From the NCBI GenBank assembly GCA_001723645.1, contig MDLC01000015.1, positions 1 to 57,238 on the forward strand: DNA of 57,238 bases. Direction: 5' to 3'. Shown piece by piece: positions 36,317-56,147 of this stretch. Numbering within the stretch: the first letter of the stretch is position 1; every line of letters begins with the position of its first letter. A program made the translations under genes and the position numbers. The notes beneath the pieces are model-generated. The model saw only the letters and a list, made by a program, of their open reading frames with translations, did no database searches and was not told the DNA's origin. Source of the DNA: Candidatus Endobugula sertula (GTDB lineage Bacteria; Pseudomonadota; Gammaproteobacteria; Pseudomonadales; Cellvibrionaceae).

Positions 36317-36862
36317 TTAATTAGTTACCACGCAATCCAGGGGTACATCCCAAGGTTCTGGAGTAATTTTACGCACTTGTTGAAAATAATAGGCCACCCC
36401 CATCATCAGTGCACGACGTTTAGAACCACCCCTTTCAAAGGTTTTATCATAGTAGCCCCCTCCCATACCAATACGGTGATTGTACTTATCAAAAGCAACT
36501 AATGGTGTTAGTACCAGATCCAAACTGCAGGCTGCAATAATACTGCCAGAGACTGGCTCTAAAATTCCATATTTATTAGACTCTAGTGGTGTGGTGGGCG
36601 TGTAGTTGACGAAAGCCAAACGCTCCTTTTCTATAACGGGCAAATAACAGGTTTTTCCTTGACTCCAGGCTTTTTTCAACAGAAAACCAAGACCAATTTC
36701 ACCTTCGTTAGCTAGGTAAAAAGCAATATGACGACTTTCTCGATAAATCTCAGTCTGTAATATGTTCATAGCCAACTCATAAGAGGCTCGTTTTTGAGCA
36801 CCCTGGCCTACAGCACAACGTCGCCGACGCATATTTTGTCGAATAGCATTAGCTGGCAACAC
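36317..36862 (-). CDS. ygfA: 5-formyltetrahydrofolate cyclo-ligase
   Basis: MTHFS family motifs. Conserved zapA-ssrS-ygfA synteny. Confidence 0.8.
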   Translation of the reverse strand: MLPANAIRQNMRRRRCAVGQGAQKRASYELAMNILQTEIYRESRHIAFYLANEGEIGLGFLLKKAWSQGKTCYLPVIEKERLAFVNYTPTTPLESNKYGILEPVSGSIIAACSLDLVLTPLVAFDKYNHRIGMGGGYYDKTFERGGSKRRALMMGVAYYFQQVRKITPEPWDVPLDCVVTN

Positions 36863-36961: not shown

Positions 36962-37152
36962 GAAACAGGAAAGTATCCCAAGAATGCCGCTGTCATAATG
37001 GCCTTGAACCGTGAAGTTCAAGTGGTGGTCTCTGGCAAGCATTAGGCTTTCCGTAGTACGGACATGCACACCAACAAGCACGAGAAACCTCCGGAAGTTG
37101 TAATATCGGCTCAAGGACGATGACTGGCAAACACCTCAGGACTCATGACTAT
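36962..37152 (-). ncRNA. ssrS: 6S RNA
   Basis: Sits between zapA and ygfA as in E. coli. Minus-strand sequence ...GCCAGTCATCGTCCTTGAGCCGATATT... matches the E. coli 6S 5' region. The central GGTTCAAGG / CCTTGAACC hairpin and the 3' region resemble 6S. Ends are approximate. Confidence 0.6.
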
Positions 37153-37189: not shown

Positions 37190-37471
37190 TTAAAGAGAGA
37201 GAATCTTTTCCACTCGATTGCACATGTCGTTAACCAGCTCTTGGTCCAGAGGTTCATTGCGCTGAGATAAATGTAACACCTCGTGGGCAAGATTCAATGC
37301 TGCCATTACCGCGATTCGCTCAACACCAATAACATTACCAGACTGGCGGATAGTTCTCATGCGATTATCAAGCTCAGTGGCCGCTTTCAACAAAGAATCA
37401 CGCTCTTCGCTGGGACAGGCAACTTGGTAATCTTTATCCAAAATATGTACAGAAAGAGTTTCTCTTGACAT
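37190..37471 (-). CDS. zapA: Cell division protein ZapA
   Basis: 93 aa ZapA family. Synteny. Confidence 0.8.
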   Translation of the reverse strand: MSRETLSVHILDKDYQVACPSEERDSLLKAATELDNRMRTIRQSGNVIGVERIAVMAALNLAHEVLHLSQRNEPLDQELVNDMCNRVEKILSL

Positions 37472-39440: not shown

Positions 39441-40397
39441 CTATACGTTTATGCAATACCATTGAGGTGTTTTAATCGCCTGTAAATATCGCTTCGACTG
39501 CTTATCCCTTTGTAGAAACATGGGTGATTCATTCGTCACTTCAAAACCAAACTGTTTCGGTAAGCTGGTATACATTGACTTTGGCGGCAAGTCATAAATT
39601 TTTTTAATCTTTCGTCCTGTATCAAAGGTATGATAATAAATGATAGAAATTCCCAGTTCATTGCGAATAAAACGAATGGCTGCCGCTAATGATAATTCAG
39701 CCCAAAGCGTTTTATAAGGTTTTAGAATGACCTCTGCATATTCTTTAATATCTCCATATTCACAATGAATGCCATTAATCACATCGCCGGGTTTTGCCGT
39801 GTTTTCCTTGGAGAGATGTTTGTTTACGTGCTCCAGATCTCTATTGACGTCGCGTAACCAATCATTTTGCACCTCCTCAATTAATGCTTCCCCAGTAGAT
39901 AAATCTGCATCGATTCTTACCCATGACAAGGTTTTACGATAGCCCCTTCTAATAGGGTGACCTCTAAACTCAAATGGACCGTAGTTATCTGAAGGCTTTA
40001 ATAAGCGGTGATACTCCTGATTGTGCTTATTATCAAAATTAATTTGCAACACCAAATTCTGCTGATTTCTCGAAGTCTGGTCGTAGTCTCTGTCACCCTC
40101 CCCCCAGCGATCCAATGTTAGAGTAAAGGCCAGCGTGCCTTCATTCCAGTAAAGTGACACATCATCCTTGGTCAACATACCGTTACCACAACGTTTAGTA
40201 ATATTTTTCACTATAGGCTTGGTGGAAAAGCGTTGTAAAGGCGGCTTGTTTAACTCGCGTACTTGTAAGCTTTGCCTTTTGTTGTTTTCCATATACCAAT
40301 TAATCATATCTAAACAATAGCGGTCTTTAAGATAATAAAAGACTCTTCTTTCGTCACCTAAGCAATCGAGTATTTCGTCTAATTCTTTCTGTTTCAT
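39441..40397 (-). CDS. Unknown-function protein, paralog (about 70 % identity) of the gene fused to the rtcB-prfH operon
   Basis: 318 aa. Long colinear identity with the 41581-42474 ORF (e.g. [47 protein letters not shown]). Confidence 0.5.
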   Translation of the reverse strand: MKQKELDEILDCLGDERRVFYYLKDRYCLDMINWYMENNKRQSLQVRELNKPPLQRFSTKPIVKNITKRCGNGMLTKDDVSLYWNEGTLAFTLTLDRWGEGDRDYDQTSRNQQNLVLQINFDNKHNQEYHRLLKPSDNYGPFEFRGHPIRRGYRKTLSWVRIDADLSTGEALIEEVQNDWLRDVNRDLEHVNKHLSKENTAKPGDVINGIHCEYGDIKEYAEVILKPYKTLWAELSLAAAIRFIRNELGISIIYYHTFDTGRKIKKIYDLPPKSMYTSLPKQFGFEVTNESPMFLQRDKQSKRYLQAIKTPQWYCINV

Positions 40398-40677
40398 AAT
40401 AGTACTTCTGATAGGAACATCTGATTAACCGATAAATATTTACTGAAGTATTTGTAAATGGGTCAATCTAGATAGTATTACATTCAATGTTTCACATTTT
40501 CTTATCGCTACTCAAGCGATAAGTCATTTTAGACAATTCTCACCTTTTAAACTGATAACAAATAGCGTTTAGTCAGTACTCAATTGGCTAAAGAGCACTT
40601 CATAAATACCGCCTGCGCATTTTTAGCCAAATTGTTATAGCGCACTTTCCGATATCCAAATGGTGACGTTCCATTAA

Positions 40678-41022
40678 ATGACAAAATTTACAAATGGTCG
40701 TCTCATCAGCGACTATCTCGCGCTGAGGCTTTGGGATAAAAAGGTTCAATGGTTTTACAAAGTGCTGACCAAGATAGAATCTCGTTCATTGGCTCCAGAA
40801 ACATCTCTTTGCGAGTCTTCTTACGACATTTTTCAAATTCTTGGTAAAATTGGCGGGCATAAAAAACACCGTAATTTAATGCGAATGATTTCAGAGCAAC
40901 AAAAAGCTATTGCTGAAATAAAAGCGGCGATGATTGCCGATGAGGATTTCGCGGAGAAATTCGCGGCTGAATTATTGGATGAACAAACCTATAAAAAAGT
41001 CATGTCTATCTTTGTACCGTGA
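40678..41022 (+). CDS. Hypothetical protein (114 aa)
   Basis: ORF. Confidence 0.3.
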   Translation: MTKFTNGRLISDYLALRLWDKKVQWFYKVLTKIESRSLAPETSLCESSYDIFQILGKIGGHKKHRNLMRMISEQQKAIAEIKAAMIADEDFAEKFAAELLDEQTYKKVMSIFVP

Positions 41023-41255
41023 GAGGGCTTTTTGCTAACCCCCTTCATAGTGAACCAGAAGAATTAAAGGATCGGAGTTTGCCTGAAAGTCCTTTGGTGG
41101 AGGAGGATGATCCTGCCTTGGCACATTTGACCTATGAGAAAAAGGTCGAGGTGATTAAATCGTTATGGAAGATGATGTCATTGATGGTTGATATGGCGTG
41201 GGGCCTGGATAGTACACAACAATCTTTAACCGAAACCTTCCGTGGAACTGGGTAA
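41019..41255 (+). CDS. Hypothetical acidic protein (78 aa), overlapping the upstream ORF stop
   Basis: ORF with 4-nt overlap. Confidence 0.3.
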   Translation: MRGLFANPLHSEPEELKDRSLPESPLVEEDDPALAHLTYEKKVEVIKSLWKMMSLMVDMAWGLDSTQQSLTETFRGTG

Positions 41256-41306
41256 GATTCTGGAAGTGTGGTACGACTAAAAGATAGCAAAAGGAGGGTA
41301 AAGAAT

Positions 41307-41516
41307 ATGGCAGAAGTCACAAAAGCATTAATTTATTGCCGTGTATCCAGTAAGAAGCAAAAGCAAGGGGACGGCTTGGAGTCAGGAACACCGCCGCCAG
41401 ACCTTACAAAAAATGAAAGCTTGTTATTGAGGAAAAAGCGGCGAATTCGGTCAAACCGCAGCGAGGTCGTGACGATACTTATATGTTCATGGCACCATAA
41501 GTTGGCCACCTTTTGA
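41307..41516 (+). pseudogene. Serine recombinase (resolvase/invertase) N-terminal fragment
   Basis: Strong SD (AAGGAGGG) then MAEVTKALIYCRVSSKKQ, the resolvase catalytic-Ser motif. The ORF diverges and stops after about 70 codons. Confidence 0.45.
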
Positions 41517-41580
41517 CACCATAGATTGGCCGTTTTGTATAATATTTGTTCATTTGGTGCGTTTGTCTCCTGATCATACT

Positions 41581-42474
41581 CTAAATTGATAGGCGATACC
41601 ATTGGGTATTTTTAATAGCCTTTAGATATCTCCTAGCTTTTTTGTGTTGTTCTAAAAACCTAGGACTTTGACTGGTTACTTCAAATCCAAATTGCTTTGG
41701 TAACTTTGTGTACATAGATTTGGGCAGCAATCCGTAGATTTTCTTAATTTTTCGCCCTGTGTCAAAAGTATGATAATAGATGGTCGAAATACCCAGCTTG
41801 TTGCGGATAAATTGAATAGCCGCTAGTAGTGAGAGTTCCGCCCATAATCTCTTATAAGGCTCTAATATGACTTCAGCATAGTGTTTAAATTCATTATACT
41901 CACAGTCAATACCATGGATAATATCGCCGGGTTTTACTGTGTTTTTCCCAGCATAGCACCTTGTAACACGCTGCATATCCCAGGTAACTCTACGGATCCA
42001 ATCATTTTGTACCTCTTCAATTAATGCTTCTCCTGTCGTAGGATCAAAATCTATTCTTACCCAAGATAATGTTTTGCGGTTATTTTGCCTAATAGGATGC
42101 CCTCTATATTCAAATGGGCCATAGCTATCATAAGGTTTTAGTAAACTATGGTAGTGTTGGTTATGTTCATTGCCAAAATTGATTTGTAAAACCAGATTTT
42201 GCTGATTTCTAGGTGTTTGATCATAACCTCTTTCGCTGTCACCCCACCGATCAAGTGTTAATGTAAAAGTTAATACATCATTGGGCCAGTAAGATTTAAG
42301 ATTATCTATTGGTAAATAACCATTGCCGCATCGTTTGATAATGTTTTTAACAATCGGTTTTGCGGCAAATAACTCTAAATAATAGCGATCCTTAAAATAA
42401 TGAAAGCCCCTTCTTTCATTACCTAAGCAATACAGTACATCCTCTAAATATTTACTCGTTAAAATCTCTACCAT
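41581..42474 (-). CDS. Unknown-function protein, translationally coupled to prfH (third gene of rtcB-prfH operon)
   Basis: 297 aa. Its start overlaps the prfH stop by 23 nt. Paralog of 39441-40397. Confidence 0.5.
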
Positions 42475-43135
42475 AAAAAGTACGTATAGGTTTACCCCTT
42501 TGCACTTCGTAGTGCTGTGACCATCGTGAACGTTCGAGTGATTTATTTTCTAAATCGTTTTGATTTGCCAGCAATAGTTGCAAACGCTCTAATGCGATTT
42601 GCTTATTTCTATGCTGGGAACGGTCTGATTCAACACGCACTTTTAAACCAGTTGTGCGATGAGTGATACGAACCGCACTATTGGTCTTATTGACATGTTG
42701 ACCACCTGGCCCTTTTGACCGCATAGTCTCCATATCGACTTCCTTCACTAATTCGTTGAACGTCTTCATACTATTACTAGGCATTGATAATGTCGCAATA
42801 CCCACGAACCAGTTGATGCGTTTATGCTTAGGTCGATAAGGGCTTTCACCTTGCCATTTAATAGTTCCTTGCCATTTATGAGCAAACCCATCAACCCCTT
42901 TGCCTTCTAAGCGGATCAATATCGACAAAAATGCATCAGGCTCAATCAATGTCTGATTTCGCAATAACTTATCAAATGCTAAGCTCTCAACGATTTCAGC
43001 AGACAGATTTTCTCTGTATGCTTCATCCAATAGAACTCGACTGAGCTGAGCAATAACCCAGCCGCATTCTTTAGGGCCTTGACCAGCCGTCAGTTGTAGC
43101 CATACAACTGACGATTTTTTATGCTTTGTTTCCAT
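42452..43135 (-). CDS. prfH: Peptide chain release factor H (RF2-like, lacks codon-recognition domain)
   Basis: GGQ motif ([18 protein letters not shown]). 227 aa. Immediately downstream of rtcB with a 3-nt gap. Confidence 0.8.
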
Positions 43136-43137
43136 AT

Positions 43138-44373
43138 TTATGTTCTCCGTGTTTTATAGGTGAGTAATGGTTTAAAGGTTGCAACGATATCAACCATACC
43201 GGCTTCCGCTAAGTCGCTCACCACCTGACTAATATTTTTGTAGGCTTGTGGGGCCTCTTCATAAAGTAGATCTCTTTGCTTACAAATAACACGGCTACCT
43301 AGTGAAGTTTTCTCTAAGTCTTTTACCTTAAAACGCTTTTCTAAGCGGCCTCGAGCATCACTGCGTTTCCATTTTCGGCCTGCACCATGTGCTAGAGAAA
43401 AACCTCCAAGAGCCAATGCACTTAGCTCATTAACTCTAGGTTTAACAAGATAACTTAAACTACCTCGAGATCCAGGTATCATTACTAAGCCCTTATTCGT
43501 TGGGCTTGCACCTTTACGGTGTATCCAATAACGTCTTTCTGAATCGATGTCTGACTTTGCGGCTGATTTTGCAGAAAGCCCCATTAGCTCAGTCTCAACA
43601 CTTGATAAAGCTTCAACCATATTGTGGGTGACATCGAACAAATAGCGTTGCTTTGTCTTTAACTGCTGACAAAAACGTTCTGCAATAAGTTCTCGATTTG
43701 CTTCAGCCCAACGGATAGCGTAATTGTGACGTTTTTGATACTGTTCATACTGATATTCATCTTGTATGGTTTCTAATGATTTTGAACCTAGGTTATCAAC
43801 ATGATCGCGAAGTATTTTTTGCCCTAAACCTCTAGAGCCGCTATGTACGAGTAAAAACACATGCTTTTTATCAATACCTAATCCATCAAATACATCACTA
43901 TCAATAATCTCATGAATCTGTTGCAATTCAGCAAAGTGATTATCGCCACCTATTGTTCCTAACTTGTGATGCTCTGTTAATGAAAAATCACCTTCAATTA
44001 TTAGACTGCGATCGCCCAACCATTCTTCCCTATTGCCATTCCATAGTTCATCAAGCCCAACAAGTTGTTTTTCCCATTTGTCTAATTTGACCTTTCTGGT
44101 CGGAATATCTAATTGCCATAAACCCATGCCACAACCAATATCACTACCCACCATATGGGGGTAGATACAGTTTTCCGTTACAAAAGCGGCGCCAATGGGT
44201 TGCCCTTTTCCTGGGTGTAGATCTGGCATACCAATACCGATACGCATACCCGGTAATTCCATTGTTTTTTTCAGCTGCGTAATGGCAGCGTCTTCTAACC
44301 AATTTTTGTCAGAGCTAATAATGCTCGTTCGACGATCCTCAGCTGTTTCGATATTTTTAAATAAAGTACTCAT
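43138..44373 (-). CDS. rtcB: RtcB-family RNA 3'-phosphate/cyclase-product ligase (RtcB2-type, paired with PrfH)
   Basis: 411 aa with RtcB motifs (metal-binding His, GSRG, HGAGR). Confidence 0.9.
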
Positions 44374-44506
44374 ACAATTTACTTGTTCTATTTTTTCCTA
44401 TATGTCATCTTTCGGCGCAAGTTCGCCCCTCCTGAATCATACATTCAAGTTAAAAAATGACAGGCAATAAGTCTTAACAGTTAATAGCGGTGCAAGGATG
44501 CGCCGC

Positions 44507-44611
44507 CACTGGTCGACAGACCAGTGCGAACCCCTTAAAAACAAGGAGCTTCACATAGCTTCGCCAGTTTTTAAGGGGTGACAGTTAAATAGGTTAGGAT
44601 GACCTATTTAA
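44507..44611. promoter_or_regulatory. Cluster of three perfect hairpins/palindromes in the leader upstream of rtcB-prfH
   Basis: CACTGGTC-GACA-GACCAGTG (44507-44526). CCCCTTAAAAAC...GTTTTTAAGGGG (44531-44578) enclosing a nested AAGCT/AGCTT hairpin. TTAAATAGG-N9-CCTATTTAA (44585-44611). Confidence 0.4.
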
Positions 44612-44725
44612 CTATATAATTAGTAACTGCAATAAATTTTAAATATGCAAAGCTAAACTAAAGCTTCAATAAAGAGCCAGAGATTAAAAATGTTTGTCTG
44701 AATGGATATAGCAGTAAGAAAAAAT

Positions 44726-44938
44726 TTAGCTATAAGAAGCTTGGCGCCCGCCTTCCGGTACCTTTGTTCGCATTTTATGGACTTGTGAATAAGCATATCC
44801 CTTAAATTTCGCCCAGCAGCCTTTATGCAAGAATAATTGTCTTTTCTCTCTTACCATTTCGCCAACCGCTGTACTGTATAAAACACAGTTTCGAGGTACA
44901 AATAAAGAATCGATAATATATTGTGTTTTACTACCCAT
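44726..44938 (-). CDS. Hypothetical protein (70 aa)
   Basis: ORF. Confidence 0.25.
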   Translation of the reverse strand: MGSKTQYIIDSLFVPRNCVLYSTAVGEMVREKRQLFLHKGCWAKFKGYAYSQVHKMRTKVPEGGRQASYS

Positions 44939-44978
44939 TGTCTTTCATCCTGTTGAGTACTATTCCTCTAAAGTCTTT

Positions 44979-46241
44979 CTATTGAGGAGCTATCTTATAC
45001 TGTGCCATATACCGCTTAATACTACCCAAACGTAACCGACGAATTTTCTCTGCTAATTTAAGGCCTTCATAGCCTTCACTTAGTAATGGCTTGATATTGG
45101 TATCTATAGCAACCTGGTTGTATTCGATTAACAATTGAGATTGAGGGTAATCTCTTTGCTCTAATCCTAAACGACCCCTAGCATCCGCTTCACAGGCTTG
45201 CGCAAAGTAACGTACACGTTCTGGTCGCCTGAACCCATCTAGTGCTTCCAATAGCTTTAATACCGATTTGGGACGCATTTCTAATAACTTATGACAACGT
45301 AAATGATGCTCTGACACTAGTTTTGCCAAGGTGCGAAAGTCTTTCGGTACTTTATAACACTCACATACTTTCTCAACTAAAGGTACACCTTTAATTTCAT
45401 GGCGAATATGACGAGGCCACTCTTCTTCAGGGGTAAGACCTTTACCCAAATCATGCATTAGTGCAGCCCAGGTCACGATTAGATCATCAAAACGCTCTCT
45501 GGCAATGTCCACGACCATCATCACATGATCACCCGTATCCACTTCTGGGTGATGCTGTGGGGGTTGCGGAACACCAAATAAACAGTCTAATTCTGGCATT
45601 AAAACCTCCAATGCACCACAGGCACGGAGCACTCGGAAAAACTCACTGGGCCGAGGCTCGGTTAATGCTCGAGACATTTCCTTCCAAACACGTTCCGGTG
45701 TTAATTCAGCAAGCTCGCCATTGTTAACCAAGTGCTTCATTAATTCTAATGTATTGGGATGCACTTGAAAATCTAACGTGGCATAACGTGCAGCAAAACG
45801 GGCTACTCTTAATACTCTCAATGGGTCATCAGAGAATGATTCTGAAACATGTCGTAAGACTTTATTATTTAAATCGGCTCTACCGTTAAACGGATCAACA
45901 TATTTACCTTCTAATGTCAGCGCAATGGCATTAATCGTAAGGTCTCTCCGAGATAGATCTTCTTCAAGTGTAACCTCGGGGCTAAAATCACAAACAAAGC
46001 CAGTGTGCCCCTTACCTGATTTTCTTTCAGTACGAGCGAGAGCATATTCATCCTTAGTTTCTGGGTGTAAAAAACAGGGAAAGTCGTTACCTATTTGTTG
46101 ATAGCCTTGCTCTATAAGCATTTCTGGAGTCGCACCGATGACTACCCAGTCATGATCTGCAACTGGGCGACCTAATAGCTTATCGCGTACCGCTCCACCG
46201 ACTAAATAAGCCTGAACACCAGTATTCTGTATATTTTCCAT
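44979..46241 (-). CDS. cca: Multifunctional CCA-adding enzyme (tRNA nucleotidyltransferase with HD phosphohydrolase domain)
   Basis: GGAVRD nucleotidyltransferase motif. The HD domain (HDLGKG) is typical of enteric-type Cca. Confidence 0.9.
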   Translation of the reverse strand: MENIQNTGVQAYLVGGAVRDKLLGRPVADHDWVVIGATPEMLIEQGYQQIGNDFPCFLHPETKDEYALARTERKSGKGHTGFVCDFSPEVTLEEDLSRRDLTINAIALTLEGKYVDPFNGRADLNNKVLRHVSESFSDDPLRVLRVARFAARYATLDFQVHPNTLELMKHLVNNGELAELTPERVWKEMSRALTEPRPSEFFRVLRACGALEVLMPELDCLFGVPQPPQHHPEVDTGDHVMMVVDIARERFDDLIVTWAALMHDLGKGLTPEEEWPRHIRHEIKGVPLVEKVCECYKVPKDFRTLAKLVSEHHLRCHKLLEMRPKSVLKLLEALDGFRRPERVRYFAQACEADARGRLGLEQRDYPQSQLLIEYNQVAIDTNIKPLLSEGYEGLKLAEKIRRLRLGSIKRYMAQYKIAPQ

Positions 46242-46987
46242 TATATTGTTACGACTAAGTTCTCATTAAAGTTTGGGTTATAGCTATCTGGATAACCTCT
46301 TGGATTACAAATAATACGGCAGTTACCTATGGAGTAATCATAACTTTGGTGCAAATGACCGTGAATCCAAAGATTTGGACTGTACTCCAAAATAAAATCA
46401 TCTAAATCAGATACATAGGCAGCGCTCGTCATATCGCTTGCCTTTTTCTCTGAAAGAGACATTCTACTAGGGCCGTGGTGACTTATAACAACATTTTTAT
46501 ACCCTTTATAAGTGGTTAGTTCACGTTCAAGCCAATGAAGTGAATGTTTATGGATAATAGCCGTATCTATCGACCTTAATTTTGAGTACTTGGGAGAAAC
46601 TCGAATCTTCTTGTAGTCATTCATTATCTGTTGACAGTGAAAACCTGCAATCCGAGGATCGCCAAAAAGCTCAAAATCTGTCCATAATGTACAGCCAAAG
46701 AAATTAATATTACCTAAAGTAACCAACTCTTTTTCTAAAATATGAATGTTTGTGTCTTTAGCCATCGCTTTCATTTCATGAATATATTTCGGATACGCTT
46801 TACCGTAAAATTCATGGTTGCCTAGTACATATAAGACGGGTTTATCAGGTATATTTTTTAATGCCCACTCTATTCCTTTTCCTTTTACATGGATATCACC
46901 AGCAAGAATGACAATGTCACACTCCGGCAAGGTTAGTTCCAAATTAGCAAACTCTATATGTAGATCACTTAATATTAATAACTTCAC
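46241..46987 (-). CDS. Calcineurin-like metallophosphoesterase
   Basis: DLH...GDIH...GNHEF metallophosphoesterase motifs. Its stop abuts the cca start. Confidence 0.75.
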   Translation of the reverse strand: MKLLILSDLHIEFANLELTLPECDIVILAGDIHVKGKGIEWALKNIPDKPVLYVLGNHEFYGKAYPKYIHEMKAMAKDTNIHILEKELVTLGNINFFGCTLWTDFELFGDPRIAGFHCQQIMNDYKKIRVSPKYSKLRSIDTAIIHKHSLHWLERELTTYKGYKNVVISHHGPSRMSLSEKKASDMTSAAYVSDLDDFILEYSPNLWIHGHLHQSYDYSIGNCRIICNPRGYPDSYNPNFNENLVVTI

Positions 46988-47052
46988 GTTATACTTCTGA
47001 TAGTTTTTTCATATGTAAAGGGTAAAACCGCCAGCAAGCTGACGGTTATCGG

Positions 47053-48207
47053 TTAAGCCTTTTTAGGGGCTAGAGTTACAAGCTCGTTAAGCACACCGCC
47101 TAAACCACCGTAAACAGAAATCTTATCGATTTGACCGGTAATTTTTTCGAGTGCTTCTAACTCTTTCAAGCGAAGCAATACTGGATTATTTTCCATCATC
47201 TTAGCAGTATTATGTAACGAACGCATAGCTTGAGTTTCCTCGCGGCGTTTGATCAAGTTAGCTTCAGCTTCTTTTTGTGCTTCAACCACTTGATTCAAGA
47301 TTTGCTTCATATCACCCGGCAAGATAATGTCTTTAACACCAACATTGACCAGCTCAATACCATAGTTAGCTAATTTTTCGCGAGTCGCTTGGGTAATCAC
47401 TGTGTTAAGTGTATCTTTATCTTCCAACAAAGTATCCAGTGATTGTGTACCCACCGCTTCACGCAGGCTTAACTGCAGCTCGCGATAGATAAAACCAGCA
47501 TAATCATTCACTTTTAAAGCGACGATTTCTGGATCTTTCACTTTATAGCTAGCGCTTAAGTTAATACGCAGGCTCACACGATCCTTTGTTAAAATTTTTT
47601 GACCACTTACCTCAACAGCTTGTAAGCGTAGATCTAATAGCTTAACACCAACAGAACGATTGTATTTCCAGAAGCCATAATTTCCAGGCTTTAAAATACT
47701 CTCGAGCTTACCATTAACGTTTAGAAGGCCGACGTGTTCATCTGGCACTTCTGCGTAAAGAATGGCATTAACTACTTCTCGGCTTTGACCTACTGTTAGG
47801 CCTCGACCTAGTAGATTAATCAACGACTTATCGATTTGGTAGTTCTCACTGATATCAATAATATCAACACGAACATCCTCTACATTTTTCCAAACGGTTA
47901 AAACAGAACCTGGTGCGAGCACACTAGCCAGCTTGTTATCTCGATACAGCAAACCGACTTCAGAGTCTTTAAGGTTAAACTGTTCAAGATAAGGTGCTAA
48001 TTTATCTGCATATTGAGTCATTAGGAACTGTGCTTTACGGTTCTTAAATAACACGTCGGTAATGTCATGAACGTCTACTGCCACTCGGCCTTGTGGGGTC
48101 GATACTCGGTGTCGACCTGGACCTAGTACACGTTTAAATTGATCACGCACATACAATAGAGCACGTTGATGATCAGCAATATCAATTGTCTTCCAGAAAA
48201 TCATCAT
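47053..48207 (-). CDS. SPFH / band-7 domain protein
   Basis: 384 aa with an SPFH-like core followed by a coiled-coil. Confidence 0.65.
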   Translation of the reverse strand: MMIFWKTIDIADHQRALLYVRDQFKRVLGPGRHRVSTPQGRVAVDVHDITDVLFKNRKAQFLMTQYADKLAPYLEQFNLKDSEVGLLYRDNKLASVLAPGSVLTVWKNVEDVRVDIIDISENYQIDKSLINLLGRGLTVGQSREVVNAILYAEVPDEHVGLLNVNGKLESILKPGNYGFWKYNRSVGVKLLDLRLQAVEVSGQKILTKDRVSLRINLSASYKVKDPEIVALKVNDYAGFIYRELQLSLREAVGTQSLDTLLEDKDTLNTVITQATREKLANYGIELVNVGVKDIILPGDMKQILNQVVEAQKEAEANLIKRREETQAMRSLHNTAKMMENNPVLLRLKELEALEKITGQIDKISVYGGLGGVLNELVTLAPKKA

Positions 48208-48490
48208 TTTCTCCTTATAGCTGGCATCATAAAGATGCCTTTTATGAATAGGCGAGGCCCACTTGGTTTTAACGCGGTCGATAATTTGAATAGCCTAGGT
48301 CACTTATCTCAGCGGCTTGTTGCGCGGTTATCTTCACCCTGAAGAACAACATCCGTGTATGCTTTCCTTAGCGAATAACCGTGGTTCAAGCATAAAATAA
48401 TGACGTAAACGATTAACCCATCATCAACGGTATTAAAACCATTGCTAGCTAATCTATAGAAGCCTTAACCAGCAGTGAGCCTCTAGTGTT

Positions 48491-48541
48491 TTATTGGTAA
48501 CAAACCAAGGGGATTCGAACCCCAGACTTTCGTCTTACCCA
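48491..48541 (-). other. tRNA 3'-half fragment (T-arm GGGGTTCGAATCCCC plus acceptor strand, no 5' half)
   Basis: A canonical T-arm lies directly downstream of the intact tRNA-Met. No D or anticodon arm is present. Confidence 0.3.
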
Positions 48542-48618
48542 TGGTGTTTTTGGCAGGATTCGAACCTGCTACCCATCGATTATGAATCGATTGCTCTACC
48601 CGTATGAGCTACAAAAAC
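48542..48618 (-). tRNA. tRNA-Met (anticodon CAT; could be elongator Met or Ile2), AU-rich acceptor stem GUUUUUG/CAAAAAC, CCA encoded
   Basis: Hand-folded cloverleaf: D stem GCTC/GAGC, anticodon stem ATCGA/TCGAT with loop TTCATAA, T-arm GCAGG-TTCGAAT-CCTGC. Confidence 0.75.
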
Positions 48619-48984
48619 CTATGCGTTGGAGGCATAGTTGTTTAGCGGGCTAGCGAATCGGTACACAGGACATTAAAAATGGCTGTGCCAGCCTGGCATA
48701 CGGAACCAGAGACACTGTTTCGTTAACTTGCGCATAAACATCGGTATGGAGTTAGACGCCAAAAAAGCGCCAAACTCCAAATACTTATCATCGAATATCG
48801 GAAACAACACTAAGGTGTTTGCCTTTTTCCTTATCGTACTCGGCAATTTCCATTTCTCCGTCAATTGGCGCTATTGTTACCAAATGATCAATTCGTGAAT
48901 ACATCTCTCCATGGTAGGCTTTTAGCTCGCCTTTTCCATTTTCATATCCTCATTGCTTATGAACTAAAGCCAATACAGTTTGGT

Positions 48985-49536
48985 TTAGCCACTCTTCCAT
49001 TTTCGTTGACTAGAAAATTGTTTAGTCAGATAGTCCATTTGATCGGCAATAATATGCCGATTAGTTAAATACAAATATTCAAAAGGATTCGGCGTAAACG
49101 GAACCGCTAATAAAAGCATATTTGCTTGTTCCGGTGTACGATTGCCTTTTGCATGATTGCAGCGCTTGCAGGCGGCCACGACATTTGTCCAACTATCGGC
49201 TCCACCTTGAGCACGCGGTACCACATGGTCACGGGTTAGTTCCTGTGCAAAAAATATTTGGCCGCAATATAAGCACACATAATTATCTCGACGAAATAAC
49301 ATAGCATTGCTAAATGAACGGACCTTCATACTTTTTCCGTGACCTTTAGTCGCAATCACTGGAGAAATATCAAGCATAGAACGTTCGCCATCGCGGTTGT
49401 AACCGCCCCGCATTAAGGCACCTTGTTCACCCATTTCCCACAGCACAAGTTTTTTGCTGTAAAGGGTTGTAGCAGCCTCCACTAATAGCCAATGCATCGG
49501 CATACCAGAGGGATTTAGGCGTAGTACTTTTTTCAT
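48985..49536 (-). CDS. HNH endonuclease
   Basis: HNH motif (DHVVPRAQGG...NVVAACKRCNHAKGN) plus a CxxC pair. Confidence 0.75.
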   Translation of the reverse strand: MKKVLRLNPSGMPMHWLLVEAATTLYSKKLVLWEMGEQGALMRGGYNRDGERSMLDISPVIATKGHGKSMKVRSFSNAMLFRRDNYVCLYCGQIFFAQELTRDHVVPRAQGGADSWTNVVAACKRCNHAKGNRTPEQANMLLLAVPFTPNPFEYLYLTNRHIIADQMDYLTKQFSSQRKWKSG

Positions 49537-49578
49537 TACCTTGCGCCAAAAAATAAATCCATATGTGAATACACCAGC

Positions 49579-49875
49579 CTAATAGTATTTAATAAAGTTC
49601 ATACCATCAGCCGAGCGATAACCATTTGTTTCTAACAAATGGATCATCGCTTGTCGTTTTTGTAATTGCCTTTCTGTAACAACTACATAAAGCGGCATCA
49701 ATTGTTGATGGAGTGCCCATGTCAACAATTGGTGCCCATTTTCGCGACCAACTAAATAGTGATCCACATATAGCTGGGTTACACTATTTTTAAGCAATTG
49801 CTTTTTTGCTTTTCTTGCATCGTCACAGAAAACATCTGCGAAACGGTTTTGATTTTTGCTAACAGATAAACGCAT
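49579..49875 (-). CDS. Hypothetical protein (98 aa)
   Basis: ORF. Confidence 0.3.
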   Translation of the reverse strand: MRLSVSKNQNRFADVFCDDARKAKKQLLKNSVTQLYVDHYLVGRENGHQLLTWALHQQLMPLYVVVTERQLQKRQAMIHLLETNGYRSADGMNFIKYY

Positions 49876-49908
49876 AATCCCTCCTGTGAGCTAGTGAGAA
49901 TATTTAGG

Positions 49909-49980
49909 GGTGACCGATGGGACTCGAACCCATATATACTTGAGCCACATTCAAGCGCATTACCGATCTGCCACGGCCAC
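49909..49980 (-). tRNA. tRNA-His (GTG), 3' CCA not encoded
   Basis: Anticodon stem CTTGA/TCAAG with loop ATGTGGC. T-arm ATGGG-TTCGAGT-CCCAT. Ends ...GGTCACC-C-CT. Confidence 0.7.
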
Positions 49981-50011
49981 ACCTAAATATTCTGGGTAAT
50001 AAGAAATAATT

Positions 50012-50086
50012 TGGTCCGCCCGGTAGGATTTGAACCCACACCTGTCGGCTTAAAAGGCCGATGCGCTACCATTACGCCACGAACGG
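50012..50086 (-). tRNA. tRNA-Lys (TTT)
   Basis: Anticodon stem TCGGC/GCCGA, loop CTTTTAA, T-loop TTCAAAT, CCA encoded. Confidence 0.8.
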
Positions 50087-50091
50087 AAAAT

Positions 50092-50170
50092 TGGCACCTG
50101 ACACAGGACTCGAACCTGCATCTCCCCGCTTCGTAGGCGGGTGCTCTAAATCCAATTGAGCTAATCAGGC
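50092..50170 (-). tRNA. tRNA-Arg (ACG)
   Basis: Anticodon stem CCCGC/GCGGG, loop CTACGAA, T-loop TTCGAGT, CCA encoded. Acceptor stem has two G-U pairs. Confidence 0.7.
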
Positions 50171-50176
50171 AAAATT

Positions 50177-50250
50177 TGGAGCCCAATACAGGACTCGAAC
50201 CTGTCTCTACTGCTTACAAGGCAGTTGCACAGCCGCTATGCCAATCGGGC
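50177..50250 (-). tRNA. tRNA-Thr (TGT)
   Basis: Anticodon stem ACTGC/GCAGT, loop CTTGTAA, T-arm ACAGG-TTCGAGT-CCTGT, CCA encoded. Confidence 0.8.
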
Positions 50251-50290
50251 AAGTTAAGAAATTTTGTGAAATAAAAGACTGGAATCCTTT

Positions 50291-51487
50291 CTAGCCTTTT
50301 ACGTTGACGATTTGACGAAGCGTATGAACAACGTCAACAAGATCAGTTTGGTTATCCATAACATCATCAATTGGCTTATACGCCATGGGAATCTCATCGA
50401 TTACACCTTTGTCTTTACGGCATTCAATCCCCTCTGTTGCAGATACAAGATCACTTACAGAATAGGTTTTTGCAGCCGCAGTTCGACTTAGGCGACGTCC
50501 AGCGCCGTGAGAGCAAGAACAGAACGATTCTGATTCACCTTTACCACGAACAATAAAACTTTTATCGCCCATAGACCCAGGAATAATACCCAAATCATCT
50601 TTTCTTGCGCGGATAGCGCCTTTACGTGTAACCCATACGTTTTTACCAAAATGGTTTTCCTTTTCCACATAGTTATGATGACAATTGATGGCTTCTTGAG
50701 TGACCGCAAACGCTGGAAGATGTTTACGTAGCTCCATCATCACTGCATTCATCATATGTGTACGATTCAATGCAGCATAATCTTGCCCCCAAGATACTGC
50801 TTCGATGTAATCATCGTAATATTCTGATCCTTCAGATAGATAAGCCAAATCTTTATCGGGCAAATGGATCATCCATTTTTCCATTTCACGTTTCGCGATC
50901 TCGATAAAATGCATTCCAATTTTATTACCGATACCACGGCTTCCTGAATGCAGCATAATCCATACGTCTTGATTTTCATCCAAACACAACTCGATAAAGT
51001 GATTCCCTGAACCTAGCGTACCTAACTGCTTTGCAAAGGCATCATACTTAATACGTTTACTTATTTGAGGATGCTTCTCGAAGATAGTACTTAAACGCAT
51101 TGAAATATCATGGCCACCTGCAATTTTAGGGTCACGATGTTTTCCGCCTGCCCCCAAAGGCACAACAGATTCAATACGACTGCGAATAGCTTTCAAATTA
51201 TCAGGCAGATCTTTTGCCTTTAGCGATAGACGCACGGCATTCATACCACAACCAATATCCACGCCTACTGCAGCAGGGATAATCGCTTTATCGGTCGCGA
51301 TTACTGAACCCACAGTCGCTCCTTTACCCAAATGAACATCTGGCATTGCTGCTACATGTTTATAGACAAAGGGTAAATTCGCTACTCGGCTTAATTGTGC
51401 CTGTGTGTTGTAATCAATATCATCTGTCCAGATTTTTACAGGCACACGCTGATCTTTATGCGTTGCCAATACTTTTTTAATGGTCAT
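50291..51487 (-). CDS. rtcB: RtcB-family RNA ligase (second copy), embedded in the tRNA array
   Basis: 398 aa with RtcB motifs (HLGKGATVGS, HSGSRGIGN, HGAGRR). Flanked 5' by 13 tRNA genes and 3' by 4 tRNA genes on the same strand. Confidence 0.9.
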   Translation of the reverse strand: MTIKKVLATHKDQRVPVKIWTDDIDYNTQAQLSRVANLPFVYKHVAAMPDVHLGKGATVGSVIATDKAIIPAAVGVDIGCGMNAVRLSLKAKDLPDNLKAIRSRIESVVPLGAGGKHRDPKIAGGHDISMRLSTIFEKHPQISKRIKYDAFAKQLGTLGSGNHFIELCLDENQDVWIMLHSGSRGIGNKIGMHFIEIAKREMEKWMIHLPDKDLAYLSEGSEYYDDYIEAVSWGQDYAALNRTHMMNAVMMELRKHLPAFAVTQEAINCHHNYVEKENHFGKNVWVTRKGAIRARKDDLGIIPGSMGDKSFIVRGKGESESFCSCSHGAGRRLSRTAAAKTYSVSDLVSATEGIECRKDKGVIDEIPMAYKPIDDVMDNQTDLVDVVHTLRQIVNVKG

Positions 51488-51517
51488 AATTGCCTCCTTT
51501 AGTTATTTTATAATGAC

Positions 51518-51658
51518 TGGTTGGAGGTATAGGAATAACCTAAGCGCGTCCTGCGCTTAGCCTTTCAGATGCAAAGCAGTTCAAAATGCTCCCGGCATTT
51601 TGTCGAACCCATCTCGCCGGGGCAAAAACCCGGTGCTCAGCCACTAAGCCAACCTCCA
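51518..51658 (-). tRNA. tRNA-like gene (anticodon loop TTTTTGC, anticodon UUU?) with a 74-nt T-loop in place of the usual 7 nt
   Basis: Perfect acceptor TGGAGGT/ACCTCCA, D-arm and anticodon arm CCGGG/CCCGG intact. T-stem ATGGG/CCTAT encloses TTCGACAAAATGCCGGGAGCATTTTGA...GGTTATT (+ strand 51534-51607). CCA encoded. Confidence 0.55.
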
Positions 51659-51668
51659 GTTAAGTAAT

Positions 51669-51818
51669 TGGAGCGATGTATGGGAATCGAACCCATTTCC
51701 TCTGCTTGGACTGCTTTGCAGGAGCAAAAGCAGGACATCATGTAGTGGTGGTTGCGAAGCAATTGTGTATAGGGATATACACAACAACGCAGGTACCTCA
51801 CCATTCGGTTAACATCGC
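51669..51818 (-). tRNA. tRNA gene with an 83-nt anticodon loop between stem halves CCTGC/GCAGA; identity unresolved (Gly-TCC, Ala or Thr possible; discriminator U)
   Basis: Acceptor GCGATGT/ACATCGC perfect. T-arm ATGGG-TTCGATT-CCCAT. Insert at + 51706-51788 contains an 8-bp hairpin TGTGTATA/TATACACA and the motif TTTTGCTCCTGCAAA. Confidence 0.5.
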
Positions 51819-51824
51819 ATAAAT

Positions 51825-51902
51825 TGGTCTGGGTGGTAGGGTTTGAACCTACGACCTTTGGGTTCCAAACCCAACACGCTAACCAAACTGCGCTACACCC
51901 AG
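51825..51902 (-). tRNA. tRNA-Pro (TGG)
   Basis: Acceptor CTGGGTG/CACCCAG. Anticodon stem TTGGG/CCCAA, loop TTTGGAA. T-arm GTAGG-TTCAAAC-CCTAC. CCA encoded. Confidence 0.8.
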
Positions 51903-51910
51903 AATAAATT

Positions 51911-52052
51911 TGGCGGTTCATACCACTTCCCATAAATAGAGAGGGAACCGGTGATCTCTCGGCTTATTCACATGAATGTAATGTATGCCGATTTTGCAGG
52001 AGCAAAAATCGGTGACAACCGAGCGCATTAAACCTGACTATGCTAATGAACC
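51911..52052 (-). tRNA. tRNA-Asp (GTC) with a 49-nt insertion immediately 3' of the anticodon loop and an expanded 24-nt T-loop
   Basis: Acceptor GGTTCAT/ATGAACC perfect. D stem GCAT/ATGC. Anticodon stem CTCGG...CCGAG encloses loop TTGTCAC followed by insert CGATTTTTGCTCCTGCAAAATCG... (+ 51963-52011). T-stem ATCAC/GTGGT. Discriminator G as expected for Asp. Confidence 0.55.
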
Positions 52053-52057
52053 TTAAT

Positions 52058-52133
52058 TGGTGGAGACCGTGGGAATCGAACCCACCACACAGTGCTTGCA
52101 AAGCATCGTCGCCCCCTTGATACATGGGCCCCC
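52058..52133 (-). tRNA. tRNA-Ala (TGC) with G3-U70 pair; irregular D-arm
   Basis: Anticodon loop TTTGCAA. T-arm GTGGG-TTCGATT-CCCAC. Acceptor GGGGGCC/GGTCTCC gives G3·U70. CCA encoded. Confidence 0.6.
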
Positions 52134-52138
52134 AATTT

Positions 52139-52293
52139 TGGAGTGCGAGGCTGGGTGAAAGAAGTGTTGTTAGCAAAGCACTGCTTTGTACTTCTTGAAC
52201 GCCCAAAACTTATAATTTTTGGCCGGCCCGCTTGCGGCAAACCAGCGTATACGGAGGTTGCAGCTCCGCGCATCGTCTCTCTGCCACTCGCAC
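52139..52293 (-). tRNA. tRNA-Cys (GCA) with an 87-nt T-loop
   Basis: Acceptor GTGCGAG/CTCGCAC perfect. Anticodon stem CGGAG/CTCCG, loop CTGCAAC. T-stem GCTGG/CCAGC perfect, enclosing + strand 52155-52241. Discriminator U as expected for Cys. CCA encoded. Confidence 0.55.
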
Positions 52294-52310
52294 AAAATAG
52301 TTATTCAGAT

Positions 52311-52384
52311 TGGCAACAGCGTCAGGATTCGAACCTGGAATACCGGAGTCAAAGTCCAGTGTGTTACCGTTACACCACGCTGCT
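52311..52384 (-). tRNA. tRNA-Gln (TTG)
   Basis: Anticodon stem CTGGA/TCCGG, loop CTTTGAC. D stem GTGT/ACAC. T-loop TTCGAAT. Discriminator G. CCA encoded. Confidence 0.75.
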
Positions 52385-52392
52385 ATATTTTT

Positions 52393-52481
52393 TGGTCGTG
52401 AGGAGCGGGTTTGAACTCTCGCAGCACTCTTGTTACTGTGCGGATTAGCAATCCGCTGCCTTACCACTCGGCCACATTTCC
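52393..52481 (-). tRNA. tRNA-Ser (GCT)-like type II gene, probably degenerate (acceptor halves and T-stem poorly paired)
   Basis: 5' half matches Ser (TG-GCC-GAGTGGTAA-GGC, anticodon stem GCGGA/TCCGC, loop TTGCTAA). 3' acceptor CCTCACG does not pair with 5' GGAAATG. T-stem GAGAG/CCGCT is mispaired. Confidence 0.4.
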
Positions 52482-52487
52482 AATAAT

Positions 52488-52629
52488 TGGTTGCGGTGGC
52501 TGGAATAACCAAAGTACTTTCTGTACTTTGCTCTGCGAGTGCTTCGCTGCTCAAAATGCTCCAGGCATTTTGTCGAACCAACAAGTTCGGGCATATGAAA
52601 CCCGCGAGTAGCCATAGCTCAACACCGCT
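52488..52629 (-). tRNA. tRNA (anticodon CAT) with a 74-nt T-loop, same architecture as 51518-51658
   Basis: Acceptor (A)GCGGTG/CACCGCA. Anticodon stem CGGGT/GCCCG, loop TTCATAT. T-stem GTTGG/CCAGC encloses TTCGACAAAATGCCTGGAGCATTTTGA...GGTTATT (+ 52504-52577). D-arm weak. CCA encoded. Confidence 0.5.
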
Positions 52630-52640
52630 TCAAATAGTAG

Positions 52641-52715
52641 TAGGCCAAGGCGGATTCGAACCGCTCCTTATCCCGCTTATGAGGCGGGTGCATTCACCGA
52701 TTATGCTATTGGCCT
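52641..52715 (-). tRNA. tRNA-Met/Ile2 (CAT), CCA not encoded
   Basis: Acceptor AGGCCAA/TTGGCCT perfect. D stem GCAT/ATGC. Anticodon stem CCCGC/GCGGG, loop CTCATAA. T-loop TTCGAAT. Confidence 0.75.
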
Positions 52716-52725
52716 AATTTAAAAT

Positions 52726-52809
52726 TGGTGTAGGCAGATGGAGTTGAACCACCAAAGCTTTCGCGACCGGGTTACAACCGGCTAGAGTCACCACGTCTCT
52801 TCTGTGTAC
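52726..52809 (-). tRNA. tRNA-Tyr (GTA), type II; acceptor stem has two internal mismatches
   Basis: Anticodon stem GCCGG/CCGGT, loop TTGTAAC. Long variable arm. T-arm GGTGG-TTCAACT-CCATC. Acceptor GTACACA vs TGCCTAC. Confidence 0.55.
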
Positions 52810-52818
52810 CTGCATAAT

Positions 52819-52895
52819 TGGCTCCGGCAGTTGGGATCGAACCAACGAACTCCTGATTAACAGTCAGGCGCATTACCACTCTGCTTCACACCGGA
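52819..52895 (-). tRNA. tRNA-Asn (GTT)
   Basis: Anticodon stem CCTGA/TCAGG, loop CTGTTAA. T-arm GTTGG-TTCGATC-CCAAC. Acceptor with two G-U pairs. CCA encoded. Confidence 0.75.
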
Positions 52896-52902
52896 ATAAA
52901 AT

Positions 52903-52979
52903 TGGTACAGTGAGCTGGACTCGAACCAGCACTCTCCTGATCTTCAATCAAGCGCTCTACCAATTGGAGCTATCACTGC
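52903..52979 (-). tRNA. tRNA-Phe (GAA)
   Basis: D-arm GCTC-CAATTGGTA-GAGC. Anticodon stem CTTGA/TCAGG, loop TTGAAGA. T-arm GCTGG-TTCGAGT-CCAGC. CCA encoded. Confidence 0.8.
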
Positions 52980-53015: not shown

Positions 53016-53173
53016 ACCTCATCGAGGAGTGGAACGACAGCAATAAAATTGATCCTGAACGGCTAGAAGACCAGCTCACACCAGAGCGTTATAGGGCGCT
53101 ATTTGATACCCTCGTAGATTGGAATGACTATCTTGACAACCATGCACCGGATATCAAGGAGTTGTTGCTATGA
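52988..53173 (+). CDS. Small hypothetical protein upstream of mobC (possible TTG start just past tRNA-Phe)
   Basis: The listed ORF 52910-53173 overlaps tRNA-Phe. The only plausible start downstream of the tRNA is the TTG at 52988. Confidence 0.25.
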   Translation: MARGERKVSNLIEEWNDSNKIDPERLEDQLTPERYRALFDTLVDWNDYLDNHAPDIKELLL

Positions 53174-53598
53174 ACAATTCTGCGAACCTCAAACAAGCGT
53201 TTGAAACCTCTAGCGCTCAAAATACCATCAAACCTAAAAAGCAGTATGCACGAACATTTTCTATGCGTCTTACGGATGGTGAACGTGATTTCTTAGACCA
53301 GCATAGCGGCTCTTTGTCATGGTCTGGCTATATCCGCAAGCGTGTCTTTGGTGAAAAAGCCGAAAAACGTCGCCCTGTAAAACGAGCTGTGCCAGATACG
53401 GCGCTACTAGCTCAAGTTCTCGCAGAGCTAGGCGCTTCCCGTTTATCTGCCAATATCAACCAACTGGCAAAACACGCCAATATGGGAACGCTGGACGTTT
53501 CGCCTGAAACTGAGCGCGAGATTGAAAGCGCCTGCCGTGAAATCCATACCCTGCGTATGCTGTTGATTGCTGCCTTGGGTGTTCAGCCAGAGGATTAG
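53170..53598 (+). CDS. mobC: MobC-like relaxosome accessory protein
   Basis: 142 aa immediately upstream of, and overlapping, the relaxase gene. Resembles the MobC family. Confidence 0.55.
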   Translation: MNNSANLKQAFETSSAQNTIKPKKQYARTFSMRLTDGERDFLDQHSGSLSWSGYIRKRVFGEKAEKRRPVKRAVPDTALLAQVLAELGASRLSANINQLAKHANMGTLDVSPETEREIESACREIHTLRMLLIAALGVQPED

Positions 53599-53600
53599 AG

Positions 53601-54734: not shown

Positions 54735-54822
54735 TTAATTGGTTAAATTTGACTCAAACAGCAAAAAAGTTGTATGCTTAAACATATATGTGTTTATACG
54801 CTTATTTATAGAGGTAACTATC

Positions 54823-55459: not shown

Positions 55460-55475
55460 ATAACAAAGCCATTTA

Positions 55476-56027: not shown

Positions 56028-56147
56028 TATACGACCTCTGATAACCTCTACGATTAAATCATGATGATATTGATGCCAAAAAAGTGGCTAGTTACACCTT
56101 AGCTGAGAGTAACAAAATAAGTGAACAAAGACGACGATAAGAGGAAC

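Follow-up and report, generated by a model that had tools for sequence, protein, structure and literature searches.

A nameless protein family that accompanies the RNA ligase RtcB: a candidate accessory of translation repair in Candidatus Endobugula sertula and other bacteria

Introduction

What is a third gene doing behind rtcB and prfH? To our knowledge the RtcB2–PrfH pair is the only pathway that reverses the lethal cuts made by ribotoxins in the ribosome. In a stretch of 57,238 nucleotides (nt) from Candidatus Endobugula sertula (contig MDLC01000015.1; henceforth the window) this pair is followed by a gene for a protein of 297 amino acids (aa) that begins within prfH itself, and a second copy, encoding 318 aa, lies nearby. 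We refer to the protein family as X and to the two copies as X297 and X318. By sequence comparison X is a real, widespread and unnamed bacterial protein family, and we think it probable, if well short of certain, that it takes a functional part in the RtcB-based repair of the translation machinery.

The RtcB2–PrfH rescue-and-repair module has been characterised in E. coli ATCC 25922 (PMC9304027, PMC9223846, PMC13166195). PrfH frees the nascent chain from 70S ribosomes with ColE3-type damage – a cut between A1493 and G1494 – and 16S rRNA is ligated by RtcB2 only on free 30S subunits, after the PrfH step; it is at high Mg2+ that PrfH becomes necessary (PMC9304027). Whether ribosome splitting, between peptide release and ligation, needs further factors was left open by the authors (PMC9304027). 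That other genes may join the pair is a familiar idea: Burroughs and Aravind (2019; PMC6514570) describe four types of accessory gene around RFH(PrfH)–RtcB, encoding a TPR protein, a Pol-beta nucleotidyltransferase, a Zn-ribbon protein with a charged helix, and a charged-helix protein. X is like these in being a sporadic extra gene joined to a two-gene core; it differs in that none of the four types fits a GNAT-like protein of 315 aa. The RtcB2–PrfH pair and the accessory-gene concept are already known; what is new is a system built around a nameless protein family. A literature search found no description of X, of the rbfA-like–rtcB–X–basic-protein operon or of the leader open reading frame (ORF) reported below; that search extended neither to the 2016 NAR survey by Burroughs and Aravind nor to their 2019 supplement, where a prior mention is possible.

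The rtcB–prfH pair and its third gene

The four genes named in the initial annotation – rtcB, prfH, the 297-aa ORF and its 318-aa paralog – were all found where it placed them, on the minus strand. The rtcB gene (43138–44373), which encodes an RNA 3'-phosphate ligase of the release-factor-linked RtcB clade (rtcB2; PF01139), scores 503.5 bits against NF007153 (cut-off 407) and 438 against TIGR03073, 'release_rtcB' (cut-off 271.8). The prfH gene (42452–43135), for release-factor homolog H (PF00472), scores 209 bits against TIGR03072 (cut-off 166.65) and keeps the GGQ motif as GPGGQHVN. Because the two genes pass these curated models, we identify the window pair by profile as bona fide RtcB2–PrfH. 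The rtcB stop ends at 43138 and prfH begins at 43135, a same-strand gap of 2 nt rather than the 3 nt first reported. In passing the pair-specific models, and in their close spacing, the two genes match the E. coli module. The difference from that two-gene module lies in X, which stands as a third gene after prfH both here and in 18–19 surveyed genomes, usually behind a small leader ORF.

X297 (41581–42474, minus strand, start ATG at 42474) and X318 (39441–40397, minus strand) are both deposited as 'hypothetical protein'. A word-indexed search recovered 95 clusters related to X, and an exhaustive search of 1.84 billion representatives with a hidden Markov model (HMM) yielded 915 proteins at E ≤ 1e-3, of which 478 also pass E ≤ 1e-30; among the 150 matches listed from these 915, almost every one aligns end to end and is 300–330 aa long. 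A scan of 185,579 species genomes located 433 X-encoding loci. Searches of Pfam, NCBIfam, PADLOC, PHROGs and the PDB (by phmmer and by profile), made with single sequences and with the family profile, returned no match, and no relative was found on the viral contigs and plasmids searched. The family has neither a Pfam nor an NCBIfam model, and some 900 protein clusters are consequently labelled 'hypothetical'. One relative, P0088, bears the UniRef label 'DUF2971', which hmmscan did not reproduce.

The two copies align by BLASTP at 62% identity from end to end with one 25-residue gap (E 3e-148), or at 67.6% over aligned positions. The proposed paralog is real. It does not carry a 20-aa N-terminal insertion: nearly all of the 95 and 150 listed relatives are ~305–330 aa long, with a canonical length of ~315–320 aa, and the gap is instead a 25-aa deletion in X297. 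X318 is of canonical length and has no adjacent rtcB or prfH and no leader ORF. X297 is a derived member from which 25 aa of the N-terminal lobe are missing, and in which every family-invariant residue is present.

Invariant columns number 28 in 42 sequences and 19 in 93, and are rich in charged and polar residues on the strands assigned below to GNAT beta4 and beta5. In the 42 diverse members they comprise (X297 numbering) Y26, W77, Q86, N93-L94-V95, H126-P127, T135, W138, R140, D142 and E153-E154 in the first half of the list, and Q156, D158, W211, E213, G240, K244, P251, S253, Y255, L258-P259, F262, F264 and P271 in the second. The Cys/His positions once taken as conserved (CGNG and a further string of 14 letters) sit in variable columns of the alignment. 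The family is basic, with a median isoelectric point (pI) of 9.25. Some members (P0165, P0168, P0169, P0197, P0212, P0213) carry a basic N-terminal extension of 80–90 aa (e.g. KGGxGGRLGRSNMSHW...KKKKRKK), which may reflect mis-called starts; hhalign found no significant similarity (probability 3%) between these extensions and a small basic protein encoded downstream of X, to which we turn below.

Gene neighbourhoods of X

Evidence that X belongs with RtcB comes from the 80 best genome loci, in which RtcB and PrfH were located by tblastn and all neighbouring ORFs were clustered. The order rtcB–prfH–X occurs in 18 loci, with one further locus showing prfH–X before the contig end cuts off the rest; 27 have rtcB–X without prfH, three have X–rtcB, and in three rtcB lies within 500 nt of X. 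No rtcB was found in 25, and three were uninformative. The ligase gene is thus adjacent to or near X in 52 of the 77 informative loci, always on the same strand, and in lineages that include Cellvibrionales, Thiotrichales, Chromatiales, Methylococcales, Woeseiaceae, one betaproteobacterium and several Desulfobacterota. Look-ups of single relatives agreed with this, showing the orders RtcA–HNH–Band7–CCA–RlaP–RtcB–PrfH–X, RtcB–PrfH–X, Band7–HNH–RtcB–X and RtcB–X.

The linkage of X in this survey is to rtcB at large, and not specifically to PrfH. The ligases that adjoin X fall in three RtcB clades – the PrfH-linked one, one of 398 aa and one of 469 aa – often without prfH, and X has other partners besides. 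In 13 loci the gene just upstream of rtcB encodes a divergent RbfA paralog (PF02033, 41.6 bits against a cut-off of 34.7). In 15 loci X is immediately followed by a gene for a basic protein of ~75 aa with the core RNPVAxSPLLRKGGxHxKSKxGxR; an NCBIfam search gave no family match for it, and its possible likeness to ArfA is our own assumption. Together these genes make up a second operon type (the L019–L047 class; e.g. L024, 8281–8715 and 10921–11169) in the order rbfA-like, rtcB (398 aa), X, basic protein, which looks like a PrfH-independent, 30S-directed repair module and is a candidate for a second ribosome-repair system. In three loci with no rtcB nearby (L064, L077 at 3082–3507, and L079) a bona fide arfB gene directly follows X (NF006718, 133 bits), and in L007 X is followed by prfC, which encodes RF3. 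A family that follows RtcB through three ligase clades, and has PrfH, ArfB and an RbfA paralog among its partners as well, offers a concrete, clonable candidate for an extra repair factor.

Predicted fold and possible role

AlphaFold2 (AF2) models of X297 and X318 were obtained with a mean predicted local distance difference test score (pLDDT) of 88.7 and 95.1 and a predicted TM score (pTM) of 0.87 and 0.93, respectively. Their secondary structure was mapped onto GNAT elements by eye, rather than by structural alignment. So mapped, the predicted models follow the GNAT order beta1-alpha1-alpha2-beta2-beta3-beta4-alpha3-beta5-alpha4-beta6-beta7, and X appears as one expanded GNAT-like domain, enlarged by ~45 helical residues inserted between beta4 and alpha3 and by extra C-terminal helices. 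The invariant E-E-x-Q-x-D on beta4 and the Y-H on beta5 would lie where GNAT active sites lie, and the cleft between these strands holds (X297 numbering) the invariant R140, D142, E153, E154, Q156, D158, E213, G240 and K244 together with the near-invariant Y234 and H235. A nuclease role, earlier read into the Cys/His positions, loses its basis, since those residues are variable and the predicted fold is GNAT-like. X nonetheless differs from GNAT proteins such as RimI, RimJ and RimL in being about twice their size, in its helical insertion and in the want of sequence or profile similarity; as modelled, it resembles GNAT in shape only, and we do not file it as a GNAT enzyme.

Several observations weigh against a role for X in repair, or against an acyl-transfer version of that role. 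The acetyl-CoA motif Q/RxxGxG/A is not recognisable on the by-eye mapping, the segment before alpha3 reading LxPYxxxWAEA, in which glycine is not conserved; none of 42 members matched a Pfam model by hmmscan at E ≤ 5, hhalign against the RimJ/RimL-type family PF13302 gave a probability of 0.45%, and the PDB profile search was empty. Because the pyrophosphate-binding motif is missing, the acyl donor, if there is one, is probably not canonical acetyl-CoA. Solo loci make up about one third of the total, and guaA, pckA and tex are examples of their neighbours; solo copies were seen in Oceanidesulfovibrio, in metagenome-assembled genomes (MAGs) of a Pirellulaceae and an Acidobacteriota bacterium and in another contig, and all three sampled non-proteobacterial copies are solo. 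In a reverse survey that started from PrfH the metagenome matches were mostly ordinary release factors, which left 12 true rtcB–prfH loci (PrfH 37–41% identical); X was present in none of the nine distant loci with enough downstream sequence, a small sample. The characterised E. coli operon, too, is treated as a two-gene unit (PMC9223846). Given these last two points, X is not required for the core RtcB2–PrfH reaction. Within the window, finally, X297 itself may be losing function, because its start lacks a Shine-Dalgarno (SD) site, it carries two deletions, and the neighbouring RlaP gene is a pseudogene.

The suggestion that X is a third component of the repair pathway accordingly survives in altered form. 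The order rtcB–prfH–X recurs in 18–19 of the 80 loci and in two contigs beyond them, but X is not universal: it is a clade-restricted accessory of RtcB-centred systems and no obligatory third subunit of the PrfH pathway.

Could the adjacency be incidental, a mobile island having merely carried X along as an acyltransferase of unrelated, housekeeping or metabolic, function? The solo loci would fit, as would the mobilisable element that adjoins the island in the window. Same-strand adjacency to rtcB across three gene orders and several taxonomic orders and phyla does not, nor does the fact that the partners – PrfH, ArfB, the RbfA paralog – are all translation-related. The survey data disfavour this explanation, and we hold it to be very improbable.

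If X is a partner of RtcB-based repair, how might it act? We envisage that X would bind the damaged substrate, be it the 30S subunit with its 16S rRNA or a tRNA on the ribosome, and would use the cleft between beta4 and beta5 to make it ready for rescue and ligation, whether by modifying it or by positioning it. Within the partner reading a catalytic, acyl-transfer-like role on a ribosome-bound substrate is a tentative option; an Archease-like action on the ligase itself is a lesser one and unlikely; what remains we assign to a non-catalytic binding role. A fuller proposal would make X a new ribosome-repair enzyme with a GNAT fold but without canonical acetyl-CoA binding, acting on damaged 30S subunits or on ribosome-bound (aminoacyl- or peptidyl-) tRNA, and supplying the step that the two-protein model leaves open: subunit release or anti-association, or the preparation of ends for RtcB. 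In the same proposal X, the RbfA paralog and the small basic protein would form a second, PrfH-independent, RtcB-based system for 30S repair, with expression gated by a leader peptide that senses translation stress. Taken as one joint claim this is speculative, and we would sooner expect some part of it to fail than the whole to hold.

The closest precedent for a helper linked to RtcB is Archease, an activating cofactor of the ligase: it too is a small-to-medium protein, and its gene characteristically lies next to rtcB. X might likewise promote guanylylation or turnover of RtcB without acting on the ribosome or an RNA substrate. That RtcB is the sole constant partner, in three clades and with or without prfH, is what such a cofactor would predict, and the invariant acidic cluster could bind metal. 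The fold of X is a different one, however; X also pairs with arfB and occurs solo, in either case without rtcB within 5–10 kb, and its basic pI would suggest contact with nucleic acid. As an account of X as a whole we regard an Archease-like cofactor as improbable.

The predicted fold also brings to mind toxins. Had X been the cognate toxin, as was once suggested – a GNAT-type poison of translation in the manner of TacT or AtaT – its damage would be repaired by rtcB–prfH, and the small basic protein could be an antitoxin. The GNAT-like prediction, the small protein directly downstream in 15 loci and the ribosome-rescue genes alongside are in keeping with this. The bulk of the evidence is not: no PADLOC, PHROGs or toxin-family match was obtained, the acetyl-CoA motif and profile similarity to GNAT enzymes are missing, many solo chromosomal copies lack the small partner, neither window copy has it, and no plasmid or phage copies were found. 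Known GNAT toxins, moreover, are ~170 aa long, as against ~315 aa for X. The toxin reading is disfavoured by the survey, and we give it scarcely any weight in comparison with a partnership in repair.

The prfH–X297 junction

A feature particular to the window is the overlap of X297 with prfH. The overlap was confirmed at 23 nt (42452–42474, minus strand), the start ATG of X297 being at 42474 and the TAA stop of prfH at 42454–42452. X297 becomes homologous to other X genes from codon 8 (42453–42451), right at the stop of prfH; its first seven codons (MVEILTS) use the final 21 nt of prfH, in a different frame. Upstream of the conserved N-terminal helix no in-frame start exists other than ATG 42474.

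Relatives have ~115–240 nt between prfH and X, and at the place of the overlap a spacer of ~140 nt that holds a leader ORF. Such an ORF was found in 52 of 87 loci (L001–L017, L041 and L081 among them; e.g. L002, 9901–10050): an ATG preceded by an SD site opens a reading frame of 15–78 codons that runs from the spacer into X, out of frame with it, and ends 23, 44 or 47 nt past the X start, and X itself lacks an SD site in the loci that have it. Leaders of the prfH-linked clade, and of the solo loci derived from it, share the conserved N-terminus [YF][FL]xxP[LI]G. The leader may serve to couple translation or, as a leader peptide, to sense it. It is absent at both window copies (40398–40560 and 42452–42474). 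Since homology starts at codon 8, at the very stop of prfH, and relatives have a spacer at this point, we read the junction as a deletion scar: the normal spacer, the leader ORF and the original start, with the first three codons, have been lost. At X318 an 8-codon mini-ORF (MFLSEVLL; 40394–40420, minus strand) has a TGA stop that overlaps the X318 start (ATGA); no SD site precedes it, and it is possibly a product of chance.

What, then, became of X297 after the deletion? Because the prfH stop sits 23 nt inside X297, the geometry of leader stops in relatives, X297 is probably translated by termination–reinitiation coupled to prfH; the co-translation first proposed from the overlap is to that extent plausible. 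On this account X297, a derived copy, would draw its translation from prfH; X318, canonical in form, stands alone.

A less favourable account is that X297 is a decaying, non-functional copy, the overlap a mere scar, and X318 the working gene. The losses at the junction are as decay would have them: neither the original start codon nor the spacer with its conserved leader ORF survives, and no SD site precedes ATG 42474. What the 25-aa deletion has taken from the N-terminal lobe corresponds to part of helix 26–38, strand 43–45 and helices 46–58 of X318 – the alpha1–alpha2 lobe, which in GNATs shapes the acceptor site – and pLDDT falls to 67–78 over residues 31–70 of X297, against 92–97 in X318. 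Next to the pair, moreover, RlaP has been cut to a 59-aa remnant, a sign of erosion in the island. Yet the frame of 297 codons is intact despite saturated synonymous divergence, the proportion of nonsynonymous differences (pN) is just 0.19–0.23, all family-invariant residues are kept, the model is confident elsewhere, and the prfH stop mirrors the leader stops of relatives. We consider decay unlikely, though a more serious contender than a toxin or an incidental neighbour, and retain the view of X297 as a coupled, derived copy.

Origin of the two copies

It had been suggested that the copies arose through duplication by site-specific recombination. The data speak otherwise. DNA homology between X297 and X318 (71–80%) is confined to the coding regions (39450–40388 against 41590–42453); between the two copies pN is 0.187 and the proportion of synonymous differences (pS) is 0.825, which is saturated. 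X318, moreover, is 74% identical to P0002 and 70% to P0005, both from other organisms, and only 67.6% to X297. These comparisons indicate that the copies diverged anciently and are no recent duplicates. The nearest relatives of both sit in the prfH-adjacent position; no remnant of prfH or rtcB was found upstream of X318. When X297 and X318 are compared with each other and with orthologs, pN ranges from 0.19 to 0.23 and pS from 0.73 to 0.83 (saturated): both copies have evolved under purifying selection.

The spacer between them (40398–41580) does contain small ORFs, two on the plus strand (40678–41022 and 41019–41255), but the 'resolvase fragment' noted earlier amounts to a weak, serine-recombinase-like N-terminal fragment (41268–41516), in which ~25 aa with a YxRVSxxxQ-like motif give poor scores (PHROG integrase, E 2e-4; IS607, E 1e-3). 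This fragment is unrelated to an intact resolvase encoded at 56314–56937. Neither small ORF has a relative among the 80 loci, and the spacer gave no match to plasmid DNA.

The surrounding island

The X297 operon forms the downstream end of a translation-repair island of ~13.5 kb (39441–52979), all of whose listed genes lie on the minus strand. From the high-coordinate end its upper part comprises a block of seven tRNA genes, an RtcB gene (398 aa), four tRNA genes, and genes for a cyclic-phosphate-processing receiver (cREC)-like protein, an HNH endonuclease, tRNA-Met and a Band-7 protein; there follow, in its lower part, genes for a metallophosphoesterase and a CCA enzyme, the RlaP remnant, RtcB2, PrfH, X297, the spacer and X318. 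The island differs from the E. coli module in these additions – RlaP, as a remnant, the CCA enzyme, Band-7, HNH, a second RtcB and a tRNA array.

Closest to rtcB, between it and the CCA enzyme, lies the RlaP nucleotidyltransferase pseudogene (44741–44917), which retains residues 118–176 of ~304 and is 91% identical over 59 aa to L081 RlaP by tblastn; intact RlaP (PF10127) occupies this position in relatives, and the remnant shows gene erosion within the island. The multifunctional CCA addition and repair enzyme (44979–46241; NF008137, 609 bits; Pfam PolyA_pol and HD) is followed, towards higher coordinates, by a calcineurin-like metallophosphoesterase (46241–46987; PF00149), an SPFH/Band-7 protein (47053–48207; PF01145) that is 70% identical to its L081 counterpart, and the HNH endonuclease (48985–49536; PF14279, PF01844). 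The small cREC-like protein (49579–49875) matches PF20274 weakly (E 7e-4, below the cut-off) and is conserved in L081. The second RtcB (398 aa; 50291–51487) belongs to the clade that adjoins X in rtcB–X loci: it is 62% identical to the RtcB of L024 and 28% identical to the prfH-linked ligase, so that the island holds two RtcB clades and two copies of X. The HNH, cREC-like and RtcB genes lie interspersed among twelve tRNA genes (48542–52979; Met, His, Lys, Arg, Thr, Pro, Ala, Gln, Met, Tyr, Asn, Phe), which were recognised by ARAGORN and Rfam.

In cyanobacteria, tRNA L-arrays grouped with HNH and rtcB genes are induced by translational stress (PMC8421152). The window island resembles that regulon in joining a tRNA array, an HNH endonuclease and RtcB; it differs in that it belongs to a gammaproteobacterial symbiont and also holds prfH and X. 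The Candidatus Endobugula sertula locus is, in sum of its parts, a translation-repair island that is partly eroding yet has kept two copies of X under selection.

The island is flanked by a mobilisable element (53170–56937) that encodes a MobC/NikA-like protein, a MobA/VirD2 relaxase, a toxin–antitoxin pair of the ribbon-helix-helix (RHH)–PIN type, a CxxCxxCC protein and, at 56314–56937, the intact serine resolvase. Elsewhere in the window a 6S RNA gene (ssrS, 87 bits; 36971–37145, minus strand) lies between zapA (37190–37471) and the gene for 5-formyltetrahydrofolate cyclo-ligase (36317–36862), an ordinary, conserved arrangement.

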